Shown here piece after piece: positions 9,298-29,637 of a stretch of DNA of 64,000 nt (the stretch's first letter is position 1; every line of letters starts with the position of its first letter). A model generated the notes under the pieces. It saw only the letters and a list, made by a program, of their open reading frames with translations. It was not told where the DNA came from and ran no database searches. Source of the DNA: Chloroflexota bacterium (GTDB taxonomy: Bacteria > Chloroflexota > Dehalococcoidia > UBA2979); NCBI GenBank assembly GCA_002716405.1, contig PBBA01000006.1:289683-353682 (forward strand), in the 5' to 3' direction. The translations under genes and the position numbers were made by a program.

Positions 9298-9399
9298 GAA
9301 TTAACTCCTAAAATATTTTAAAACTAATATGCAATATTTATACAAATAAAACTTTTGATTTCAGGGGGAAATTTTGTAACAATTCTATACTTTAAGCAA

Positions 9400-9666: not shown

Positions 9667-9715
9667 GCCTGCACTCCTATCTAGTGCTTCGGTATTTCCG
9701 AATTGGCCTGAAAAT

Positions 9716-9836
9716 TGCTTACGAGGTTAGCTGTCGGGTTCGGGTTGTCAGGACACCCGCTTTTCGAAAAAAGTTCACCCCAATTATTGGTTCCCCCGAT
9801 CTTGATTATAAATAAATAACCAAAGATTCAGCAGCT
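9716..9836 (-). promoter_or_regulatory. c-di-AMP riboswitch aptamer (ydaO/yuaA class)
   Basis: Minus-strand RNA reads UGCUGAAUC...GAUCGGGGGAACCAAUAAUUGGGGUGAAC...ACCCGAACCCGACAGCUAACCUCGUAAGCA. These match the conserved ydaO blocks as I recall them (GGGGGAnCCA, GGGGUGAAUC, CCGAAnCCGnCAGCUAACCUCGUAAGC). A closing helix UGCU/AGCA is present. Confidence 0.8.
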
Positions 9837-9871
9837 ATACAACCCAATTGGGTTGTGATTCTTTTAACAAG

Positions 9872-26765: not shown

Positions 26766-27914
26766 CTAGTTATTGCTCTCAATTCTAATTGATACTCTTG
26801 TAAGATTTTTCATGCCAAGATCGCGTTCAATCGAGAGAATACCGCTATAACCTAGAGTAGAATTTTGAAAACCCAATAAACTTGAAGAACCTCTAGACAT
26901 ATCCTCAACCAATTCCCATCCTTGAGTATTTAATAAATCTCGATATAGATCTGTTATCGCTGAAACTGTCTCGTCAGAGTGTAACGAGCTCTGAAAATTT
27001 GCAGTCCCTTGATCTATAGACCAATTAATATCAGTAACTATCGCACCTTCTAAGAAAAGAAATTTTGCAGGAAATTTTTTAGGAATAGGGCGTGATATAG
27101 ATTCTTCTGATAGCTTTACATCAAATTCATTATCCGAGTCGATATTTAACCGGTACATTATGGATGACTTTGCATCGGTAACTTCATCTAAGCTTGCCAT
27201 TGCATCGTCAAGATCTGCTACAGAGCCAATTAAATTACCTTCAATTGATGTAATTATGTCACCAGCAATCAAGGAAGAATGGTACTGAGACTCTTTTATC
27301 ACTATGGAATTTTCTTCTTCTATGTACGTAAATGTAGGGAATGGTTCAATACTTCCGCGAGGAAGCTCCACAGAAATTGACTTTCCTGCGCGGAGAATTT
27401 CCATATCAATCTTTAAATCAGGAGGGAAAGCTTGAATCGTTACCAGGCCAGTTATGTTTGGATTTTCAGTATTCCTAAAGGAAACAACAGAAAAAGTATT
27501 ACTTGATTGTCCACCATCTAACTGCCACGGGCTAATATTCAATTGCTTCTGAATATCCTCTTCGACACTTAAAGCAGCAGCAGCAGTATCAAAAATCAAC
27601 CACACAACATGCGAACCATCCTGCTTCAAAACATGATAAGAGGCCAACAACTCCCCCTCAGGGTGAACAGGAAGGGCAATGGGTTCTTCGCGACCATCAA
27701 AACTAGAAAGATTTAACAAATATGATAAATATGGAGGTAAAGTTTTTTCAAAATAGAATACTTGGTTGCCGAAGTCACTAGCTTCAAATAAACGAAAATA
27801 TCTATCAGGTCCATTTGAAAAATCAGAAGAACTTTTTAGATTTTCATTATCACCAAAGCAAGACAAACCAAGACAAATAATAGGGATAATTAAAAAATAT
27901 ATTTTTTTCGACAT
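26766..27914 (-). CDS. Lipoprotein with a PDZ-like segment, unknown function
   Basis: MSKKIYFLIIPIICLGLSC lipobox; LIAGDIITSIEGNLIGSVADL PDZ-like. The first 25 codons of the track ORF overlap tRNA-His and are rejected. Confidence 0.6.
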   Translation of the reverse strand: MSKKIYFLIIPIICLGLSCFGDNENLKSSSDFSNGPDRYFRLFEASDFGNQVFYFEKTLPPYLSYLLNLSSFDGREEPIALPVHPEGELLASYHVLKQDGSHVVWLIFDTAAAALSVEEDIQKQLNISPWQLDGGQSSNTFSVVSFRNTENPNITGLVTIQAFPPDLKIDMEILRAGKSISVELPRGSIEPFPTFTYIEEENSIVIKESQYHSSLIAGDIITSIEGNLIGSVADLDDAMASLDEVTDAKSSIMYRLNIDSDNEFDVKLSEESISRPIPKKFPAKFLFLEGAIVTDINWSIDQGTANFQSSLHSDETVSAITDLYRDLLNTQGWELVEDMSRGSSSLLGFQNSTLGYSGILSIERDLGMKNLTRVSIRIESNN

Positions 27915-27927
27915 ATATACTCGTATA

Positions 27928-28004
27928 TGGGGTGGATGATGGGATTTGAACCCACGGTCTCCTGGGCCACAACCAGGCGCTTTAACCACTAAGCTACACC
28001 CACC
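27928..28004 (-). tRNA. tRNA-His (GUG), with encoded G-1 and CCA
   Basis: G-GUGGGUG-UA-GCUU-AGUGGUUA-AAGC-G-CCUGG-UUGUGGC-CCAGG-...-GUGGG-UUCAAAU-CCCAU-CAUCCAC-C-CCA cloverleaf. Confidence 0.93.
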
Positions 28005-28092: not shown

Positions 28093-28593
28093 TTAAAACT
28101 CTTTTGAAAGTTTTCGATATTTACCCTTAAAAAATAAAAGAGGATCGTCATCAGAATTATTCGAAGCAAAATCAACAACTTCACCCACAATTATCGTATG
28201 GTCACCACCTGGAAATTGATCTCTTATCTTGCATTCAGCAAATGCAATACAACCATCAAGTATCGGAGTCCCTAAAACACCCGTATGATAAGGAGTTCCA
28301 CTAAGAGGTTCTTCCATACGTCCATGTTTAGCAAAAAGAGTAGAAATATCTTCTTGATTTTCACCTAATATATTAACTGCAAATGAACTAGTGCCTGCCA
28401 AAGCTGTATGCATTGAAGCAGTTTTGGCAACACAAATTAATATTAATGGTGGATCTAACGATAATGAAGAAAATGCATTTGCCGTCATTCCATATAATTC
28501 TTCAGACTCAAGGGTAACAACCGTTACTCCTGTGGCAAAAATTCCCATCGTATCTCGAAATGATCTCGAATCCACCGATTTTTCTTCACTCAT
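28093..28593 (-). CDS. Flavin reductase-like (HpaC/split-barrel FMN-binding) protein
   Basis: FRDTMGIFATGVTVVT and ...GDHTIIVGEVV motifs. Start taken at MSEEKS, because the track ORF's first 20 codons overlap tRNA-Sec. Confidence 0.8.
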   Translation of the reverse strand: MSEEKSVDSRSFRDTMGIFATGVTVVTLESEELYGMTANAFSSLSLDPPLILICVAKTASMHTALAGTSSFAVNILGENQEDISTLFAKHGRMEEPLSGTPYHTGVLGTPILDGCIAFAECKIRDQFPGGDHTIIVGEVVDFASNNSDDDPLLFFKGKYRKLSKEF

Positions 28594-28624
28594 CCAACAC
28601 CTCAAGTTCAAAATAATCACTACC

Positions 28625-28721
28625 TGGCGGGAATGCGTGGGAGTCGAACCCACCCAGGACTACGACGTAGCCCCGCAACGGTTTTGAAGACCGCGAACAC
28701 CACCAGGCATTATCCACTCCC
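28625..28721 (-). tRNA. selC: tRNA-Sec (anticodon UCA), selC-type
   Basis: 97 nt: GGGAGUGG AU AAUGCC-UGGU-GGUGUU (6-bp D stem, 4-nt loop), GCGGU-CUUCAAA-ACCGU (UCA anticodon), a long variable arm GGGGCUAC-GUC-GUAGUCCU, GUGGG-UUCGACU-CCCAC, and an extended acceptor ending G-CCA. Confidence 0.88.
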
Positions 28722-28813
28722 ACACATATCATACTTACATATTAGGAATTGGAGTATCGCTTAATCATGTATTATTATGCATAAAGCTAATTATATAAGA
28801 GCAAGGAAAAAAA

Positions 28814-29317
28814 TTGACAATTGAACAACCCTCAGAAGAAGATCTTTCACAAGCTTCACCAGAAAATATTAATAAGATGCGTAAATTCGTTAATAACTTT
28901 GCCGAAAAAAGTGGTAGCTTTTTACACCCACAATCTGAGATTACAGAATTTCTAGTCATAGGTTTGGCAAAAAATATTGATGAGGTTGGAAGACCTCTTT
29001 GCCCTTGTATGTTTTTTGAGGACAAAGAAGAAGAAATAGAAAAGAAATTCTGGATTTGTCCATGTGAAGAAATGCAAAGATGGAAATATTGTCACTGACT
29101 ACTTTTTTGCGACGAGGAAGGTCTTCCCGTCACAGAGCATTTACCAGAAGATCATGAAGGAAGAGAGGCGTATGGTCTCCGTAAAGATCCTGACCCAAGT
29201 AAAGGTAGAGCCCTAGGAAGGCTTGAGGAAAAGCAAGGTAGATCGCTTAAAAAAGGTCAACGATCTAGTAATGAATCCAATCAGACTGGGAACAAAAATC
29301 CAAAAAATATTATCTAA
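28814..29317 (+). CDS. Ferredoxin:thioredoxin reductase catalytic-subunit homologue, predicted selenoprotein (in-frame UGA at 29096..29098 read as Sec)
   Basis: CPC-(16)-CPC-(8)-CH[UGA]-LLF matches the FTRc CPC...CPC...CHC.LF pattern exactly. 72 stop-free codons follow the UGA in an AT-rich genome. A SECIS-like hairpin lies 12 nt after the UGA, and tRNA-Sec is 93 nt upstream. The track ORF stops at 29098. Confidence 0.7.
29111..29131 (+). promoter_or_regulatory. Bacterial SECIS-like hairpin
   Basis: GACG(A)GGAA-GGUC-UUCC-CGUC: an 8-bp stem with one bulged A and a GGUC apical loop starting 24 nt after the U of UGA. Confidence 0.6.
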
Positions 29318-29637
29318 AGTACCGCATCGATATGCTTAGCAAGTTCACTCTTTGGACGAAATCCTATAACTTGACCAACATTTTCTCCGCCTTTAAAAAG
29401 CAACAATGTAGGAATTGAACGAATCCCATACTTACCAGATACTTGAGGATTTTCATCAGTATTTAACTTCACAAATTTAACTTGTCCATCATAGTCGTCA
29501 GATAGTTCTTCGACGACTGGAGCTACCATCCTGCAAGGTCCACACCACGGTGCCCAAAAGTCTACCAAAACAGGTAGTTCAGAATTTAAAACATCAACTT
29601 CAAATGTTGAGTCTGTCGTATCAGTAGGGTGTGCCAT
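29314..29637 (-). CDS. trxA: Thioredoxin
   Basis: [18 protein letters not shown], 107 aa. Its 3' end overlaps the extended FTRc ORF by 4 nt (convergent). Confidence 0.93.

Follow-up and report, generated by a model that had tools for sequence, protein, structure and literature searches.

The hairpin at positions 29111-29131, located 12 nt downstream of an in-frame UGA, is very probably a genuine bacterial SECIS element, as judged from sequence comparison, and its host gene would encode an FTR-like selenoprotein with a single Sec. Positions are those of the window, i.e. the whole stretch of 64,000 nucleotides of DNA that was analysed. A SECIS had already been suspected in the initial annotation, and this reading is supported by the in-frame UGA at the position of FTR Cys87, the coding conservation downstream of this codon, the presence of tRNA-Sec, SelA and SelB, and the hairpin found in orthologues. 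The relevant features of the window are as follows.

28093..28593, minus strand: flavin-reductase-like gene adjoining the tRNA-Sec gene, given for context only (PF01613, 147 bits)
28625..28721, minus strand: tRNA-Sec gene with anticodon UCA, divergent from the FTR-like gene and ~100 nt upstream of it (Rfam RF01852, 72.6 bits; ARAGORN tRNA-SeC)
28814..29317, plus strand: FTR catalytic-subunit-like gene, 167 aa with a single predicted Sec, TTG start after AAGGA (PF02943)
29096..29098, plus strand: in-frame UGA, predicted Sec codon (residue 95 counted from the TTG start)
29099..29110, plus strand: spacer ctacttttttgc of 12 nt, coding for LLFC, from the UGA to the base of the core hairpin
29105..29137, plus strand: extended lower helix flanking the core, UUUUG (29105-29109) with CAGAG (29133-29137), 5 bp (RNAfold MFE)
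29111..29131, plus strand: putative core SECIS hairpin, composed of GACG (29111-29114), bulged A (29115), GGAA (29116-29119), loop GGTC in the DNA, GGUC in the RNA (29120-29123), TTCC or UUCC (29124-29127) and CGTC or CGUC (29128-29131) (RNAfold MFE and centroid)
29314..29637, minus strand: thioredoxin gene, convergent, with a 4-nt overlap with the end of the FTR-like gene (PF00085, 116 bits, WCGPC motif)

The FTR-like gene and its product

The predicted protein matches the Pfam family of the FTR catalytic chain (PF02943, FeThRed_B) with 79 bits against a cut-off of 22. It contains the motifs CPC...CPC...CHU in the CPC-x16-CPC-x8-CHC spacing of this family, and it ends in a conserved C-terminal extension of ~65 aa. 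The protein can be aligned without gaps to the FTR catalytic chains of the PDB entries 1dj7, 7bzk and 2pu9 (E ~1e-20). In the alignment to 1dj7 and 7bzk, the residues C63/C65/C82/C84/C93/U95 correspond to chain residues 55/57/74/76/85/87, which places the UGA at Cys87 of the Synechocystis FTR, the last Cys of the CHC motif. Cys57 and Cys87 reportedly form the redox-active disulfide of FTR, and Cys87 is said to be the half of this disulfide that contacts the [4Fe-4S] cluster.

The segment TIEQPSEED, located upstream of the first ATG (28877), is conserved among the orthologues, and the true start is therefore taken to be the TTG at 28814. At the other side of the UGA, the reading frame stays open for 72 more codons. 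The residues T, L, P, H, E, G, Y and G are invariant in this part, with a third-position entropy of 0.4-1.5 bits. Because the third positions vary at invariant residues, the region after the TGA appears to be translated.

In public protein collections the gene is stored as a 94-residue product that ends at the UGA (P0062, with 43 members, and P0069). Since this 94-residue product (28814-29098) is what the public sets contain, the Sec forms would be systematically mis-annotated.

Structure of the hairpin

Within the hairpin, nucleotides are numbered from the U of the UGA (nt 1). The core consists of an 8-bp stem (4+4) with a single bulged A (A20, 29115) and a GGUC tetraloop at nt 25-28, so that 21 nt (29099-29119) lie between the UGA and the loop. 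The sequence, the single bulge and the 8-bp stem given in the initial annotation match the DNA at 29096-29131 exactly, and its statement that the loop starts 24 nt past the U of the UGA is correct, the first loop G being nt 25.

The folding energy computed with RNAfold is -13.2 to -14.7 kcal/mol, with z = -1.6 to -2.0 and 9-14 of 200 shuffles equally stable. The single-sequence fold is thus modestly unusual and, taken alone, weak evidence. In the identical shuffle test the SECIS of E. coli fdhF reached z = +0.1; given that this is a bona fide element, the folding of one sequence has no discriminating power. The 12-mer GGAAGGTCTTCC occurs a single time across the 1.3-Mb genome. Hairpins of the type '4 bp + GGTC loop' number only 20 on both strands of the genome, from which the chance of finding one 16-37 nt past any given TGA was estimated at ~2e-4. 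No SECIS family of Rfam (release 15) was found within 28780-29350, either at the gathering score or at E <= 10.

Conservation among orthologues

Orthologous DNA was collected from 60 searched relatives and from a contig scan, of which the best 80 of 262 hits in relatives were taken (all of them Chloroflexota/Dehalococcoidia MAGs), yielding 110 loci. At the CHC position, 106 of the 110 loci have TGA and 4 have TGC. Not a single indel occurs between this codon and the hairpin in any collected orthologue, and the spacing is identical throughout.

The initial annotation had proposed to look for covariation of the hairpin in orthologous genes, and had named its loss in orthologues with the UGA as a refutation. 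This refutation did not occur: of 87 unique TGA orthologues, 86 retain the hairpin in an unchanged location, with compensatory changes in the lower stem and frozen synonymous sites, and it was absent from 9/9 Cys orthologues. The 12-nt core GGAAGGUCUUCC (29116-29127) is invariant in these same 86 of 87 unique TGA genes. At the codon level, positions +7, +8 and +9 are GAA, GGT and CTT in 87 of 88 unique TGA sequences, and the third position of codon +6 is always G, though this codon encodes E, S, A or P. The third-position entropy of the hairpin codons amounts to 0-0.09 bits, compared to 0.3-1.5 bits at invariant residues elsewhere in the gene.

As raw cell counts are inflated by relatedness, synonymous changes were counted on a tree. 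This tree was built without the hairpin columns, and parsimony changes were counted for each third position. Codons +6 to +9 underwent 0, 1, 1 and 1 third-position changes, respectively, whereas the median outside the hairpin is 15 (over 123 codons) and control Gly, Leu and Glu codons show 16-19. Base composition varies widely across the collected loci (locus GC 32-74%, gene GC3 0.25-0.99), and the A/T-ending codons GAA, GGT and CTT are kept even in genes with a GC3 of 0.97-0.99. These frozen synonymous sites support the core and point to selection at the RNA level.

Base pairing and covariation

Pairing was counted for the 8-bp structure of the initial annotation over 77 unique orthologues. 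In these, 93.5% of the cells are paired, compared to 27-63% when the partners are slid. Changes on both sides of a pair were observed in 37 cells, against 11.3 in shuffles, and none of 500 shuffles reached 37. At pair 18-34, 59 sequences have U-A and 11 have C-G. The tree requires at least 4 switches between these two states, by which a synonymous Asp site is tied to a replacement of Val/Ile. All 25 sequences with G instead of C at nt 33 have C at nt 20. The C at nt 20 then pairs with the G at nt 33, and the unpaired base becomes nt 18 or 19. The one-bulge stem is thus preserved in two registers, in which the bulge moves and the stem is kept. The independent-pair tests for pairs 18-34 and 20-33 gave 3:0 and 2:0 in the expected direction (p = 0.25-0.5), the number of independent events being small.

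The support differs between the parts of the structure. In the lower helix, the pairs 10-42, 11-41, 12-40 and 14-38 are formed in 95-100% of the orthologues. They show one-sided changes only, and the lower helix is for that reason less supported than the core. No variation occurs among the orthologues in the upper 4 bp and the loop, which therefore give no covariation signal and are supported by the frozen synonymous sites instead. When each sequence was folded separately, 69 of 77 TGA sequences, but none of the 9 Cys sequences, gave an MFE structure with GGUC as its apical loop (nt 25-28). For the 77-sequence alignment, the consensus fold of RNAalifold was not this hairpin but a weak, non-covarying alternative of -3 kcal/mol.

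Homologues with Cys

Nine homologues with Cys (TGC) were available, four among the 110 loci and five from relatives. The core GGAAGGUCUUCC and the hairpin fold are absent in all nine, a contrast between Sec and Cys forms that covers ~2-3 evolutionary transitions. The peptide (E/D)-G-(L/M)-P is retained in the Cys homologues, with codons such as GAC GGA CTC, GAA GGC CTC or GAG GGG CTG. L030 (Sec) and L040 (Cys) share an identical NEEGLPI and differ at four synonymous positions. In the Sec genes the hairpin coincides with the codons for (D/N)-E-E-G-L-P-(V/I). Since the Cys homologues carry the same peptide, the RNA signal would lie purely in the choice of codons (GAG GAA GGU CUU CCN).

Core and TGA occur together in 86 unique genes and are both missing in 4; in one gene there is a TGA without the core. 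This exception, L041 (G020:C79:3666-7052), is the only TGA orthologue lacking GGAAGGUCUUCC, and it contains an alternative hairpin, GAUGG-CGUGC-CCAUC. L041 groups with Cys forms in a weakly supported subclade that is nested among Sec forms, and it may represent the remodelling or the re-gain of a SECIS.

A further proposal is advanced only tentatively, as it is rather doubtful. The SECIS may consist wholly of synonymous codon choice over a peptide (N/D-E-E-G-L-P-I/V) that the Cys homologues have as well, in which case a switch between TGC and TGA together with ~4 silent changes would suffice to interconvert Cys and Sec enzymes. The nested Cys subclade and L041 could then be traces of such conversions within the clade.

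Selenocysteine machinery and genomic neighbourhood

The genome itself encodes SelA (536 bits) and SelB (327 bits), with scores that exceed the curated cut-offs. The SelB protein contains the C-terminal domain PF09107 (SelB-wing_3), the SECIS-binding wing domain. For selD, only paralogues and no hit above the cut-off were found in this genome, which is 84.5% complete. Both congeners, and 30 of 37 relatives, have a selD above the cut-off, whose product is mostly a selenoprotein itself. Given the selD of both congeners, the absence is attributed to incompleteness of the assembly.

The selD product of the two congeners (G001 and G002; L129 and L130) is a selenoprotein with the sequence SCAG-U-AGK. 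Downstream of the UGA in these selD genes, no clear canonical hairpin was obtained with RNAfold.

TGA terminates 194 of 972 long ORFs (20%), and the genetic code is therefore considered standard. An alternative code, in which TGA would be a sense codon genome-wide, was rejected on the same count and on the normal ORF density under table 11.

A tRNA-Sec gene was found within ~3 kb of the orthologous FTR-like gene in ~22 of 60 loci scanned (L013-L067), usually divergent and immediately upstream. The linkage of tRNA-Sec and FTR-like gene is thus maintained in some members of the clade. The likely substrate of the selenoenzyme is the thioredoxin encoded next to it.

The own genome was also scanned for in-frame TGA codons followed by a hairpin, which recovered three paralogues of the UGSC family (NF041046).

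Contig C1, ~55060, minus strand: UGSC gene
Contig C4, ~36085, plus strand: UGSC gene
Contig C4, ~78715, minus strand: UGSC gene

These paralogues of ~173 aa have an in-frame TGA in the motif ADUGSC and score 124-167 bits against NF041046, two of them above the cut-off and one just below. Their hairpins consist of 7-8 bp, and the loop (nt 23-25) is GUA or GUG.

Some other RNA features of the window may be mentioned. A c-di-AMP riboswitch (Rfam RF00379, 84 bits) is located at 9701-9843 on the minus strand, upstream of the gene region near 9300. The tRNA-His gene at 27928-28003 (minus strand) is overlapped by the 5' end of a 407-aa ORF (26766-27989, minus strand), and the tRNA-Sec gene is overlapped by the ORF 28093-28653. 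Because of these overlaps with tRNA genes, the real starts of both ORFs are expected further downstream.

Comparison with known SECIS elements and selenoproteins

The bacterial SECIS (bSECIS) model of Zhang and Gladyshev (2005), as reproduced in Fig. 2 of PMC13188914, describes a loop of 3-9 nt, an upper stem of 4-16 bp and an MFE of <= -7.5 kcal/mol. According to the same source, the loop has at least one G among its first two nucleotides, with G or U as the usual next base. The distance from the UGA to the loop is given as 16-37 nt in the model as presented in PMC13188914 and PMC10778597. The element of the window lies within this consensus on all four points, with a 4-nt loop on a 4-bp upper stem, a G-G loop start, a distance of 21 nt and -13.2 kcal/mol (for the UGA + 48 nt). 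The context is likewise that of a bSECIS: the in-frame UGA is aligned with a Cys of the homologues, and the ORF continues downstream. Nothing substantive differs, apart from the unusual conservation of the core, which is invariant across a class-level clade.

The initial annotation had also named the SECIS of E. coli fdhF (UGA140 of formate dehydrogenase H) as a comparable element. This SECIS was read from NC_000913 and indeed has a GGUC loop (nt 22-25) and a bulged base (U18), as stated there. Both elements are situated within the ORF right after an in-frame UGA, have a GGUC loop closed by an A-U pair and a single bulge in the 5' arm, and possess a lower helix that reaches back to the UGA. 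The spacer is 11 nt in fdhF and 12 nt here. The elements differ in geometry, in that the fdhF loop is 3 nt nearer to the UGA (nt 25-28 in the window), and its stem is 3+3 bp with the bulged U18 3 bp below the loop, compared to 4+4 bp with the bulged A20 4 bp below the loop. The base corresponding to A20 is C in some orthologues of the window's gene, or the bulge is shifted to nt 18/19. The host protein and the phylum are different as well. Of the resemblance that was claimed, the identity of the loop sequence holds, while the geometry is similar only. The hairpin of the window resembles the fdhF type without being an exact match.

The UGSC elements of the same genome offer another comparison. 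Here too the hairpin lies directly past an in-frame UGA, has G-U in its loop and is presumably served by the same SelB. However, the UGSC stem is uninterrupted over its 7-8 bp and carries its GUA/GUG loop at nt 23-25, whereas the stem in the FTR-like gene is bulged and presents GGUC at nt 25-28.

FTR selenoproteins were reported from GOS reads in 2008 (PMC2398784), and FTR-type selenoproteins with a 'CxU' motif appear in PMC9312934 and PMC13188914. The FTR-type selenoproteins, including those of NCBIfam family NF041072 (FtrB double-selenoprotein), belong to the same superfamily as the protein of the window (PF02943/COG4802), and in both the Sec ends a CxC motif by the [4Fe-4S] cluster. The window's protein differs from the double-Sec form by having one Sec, by retaining the CPC and by its C-terminal extension of ~65 aa. 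It scores 45 bits against NF041072, for which the cut-off is 160, with one UGA only and the CPC retained.

A distant FtrB homologue from the same class, L128 (G056:C1:1338500-1340000), has two in-frame TGAs (CPU...CIU) and is of the double-Sec type. Downstream of the second of these codons lies a SECIS of another sequence, GCGAAGA-GUU-UCUUCGC.

Overall, the element of the window is a clean but ordinary example, as both its mechanism and the selenoprotein family of its host gene are known.

Alternative explanations

The hairpin could be a by-product of protein constraint, in which a self-complementary stretch coding for EEGLP would fold without any RNA function. In line with this, EGLP is also conserved in the Cys homologues, so the nucleotide conservation is partly protein-driven, and the z-value of the single-sequence fold is modest. 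However, the Cys homologues code for the same peptide with other codons and without a hairpin, and the degenerate third positions of the core changed at most once, compared to a median of 15 changes at other codons. Neither the retention of GAA, GGT and CTT at a GC3 of 0.97-0.99 nor the third-position G of codon +6 across four amino acids would be expected from the peptide. The synonymous-site data appear to largely refute this explanation, and it is considered highly improbable. Even less probable is that the TGA is a true stop, arising from a pseudogene, a split gene or an assembly error, and that the hairpin is irrelevant. The 94-residue product in the public protein collections (P0062 and P0069) would fit such a stop, but independent assemblies show the same TGA at 106 loci, purifying selection acts on the protein sequence encoded downstream, and the truncated protein would be without its second redox-active residue.

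It is also conceivable, though very unlikely, that a conserved RNA is present with another task, such as stabilising the mRNA, pausing the ribosome while a cofactor is inserted, or stimulating UGA readthrough with Trp or Cys independently of SelB. The evidence that connects the RNA to SelB is indirect, the distance from the UGA to the loop exceeds that of fdhF by 3 nt, and the UGSC SECIS candidates of the same genome have different loops (GUA/GUG at nt 23-25). These points are opposed by the strict association of the element, which always accompanies TGA and never TGC, and by its agreement with every feature of the bSECIS model. In addition, many lineages have a dedicated tRNA-Sec gene next to the FTR-like gene, the genome encodes SelA and SelB, and the recoded position is a redox-active Cys, a typical Sec/Cys pair (PMC2398784). 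A SECIS that directs Sec insertion at the UGA is by far the preferred reading.

Proposed mechanism

By analogy with E. coli and Moorella, we infer SelB binding, Sec insertion and the function of the enzyme as follows. The C-terminal winged-helix domain of SelB, in complex with GTP and Sec-tRNA-Sec, would bind the apical loop and the neighbouring bulge. The lower helix is presumably melted by the approaching ribosome, which would place the UGA in the A site. The tethered SelB could then deliver Sec-tRNA-Sec and out-compete release factor 2, after which translation would proceed for the 72 codons past the UGA. The tRNA-Sec encoded at 28625-28721 is the probable decoder of this UGA. The predicted product is an FTR-like [4Fe-4S] disulfide reductase with Sec at the CHC position, which we take to be half of the redox-active disulfide in the solved FTR (Cys87).

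Implications

No new mechanism is involved; SECIS elements of bacteria are already established, and so are selenoproteins of the FTR type. For a large clade of Dehalococcoidia/Chloroflexota, the 94-residue 'FTR fragment' would in reality be a selenoenzyme of 150-170 residues, and the annotation is to be corrected. The gene also provides a well-controlled natural case of a dual constraint on protein and RNA, in which the same peptide is encoded with a hairpin in the Sec forms and without one in the Cys forms, over a GC3 range of 0.25-0.99. The predicted placement of selenium at the equivalent of the active-site Cys87 of FTR is of interest for enzymology. If the interconversion of Sec and Cys forms is true, the clade would offer a natural series for the birth, decay and rebuilding of a SECIS, and it would furnish a template to install Sec in FTR-like enzymes while leaving the protein unchanged.
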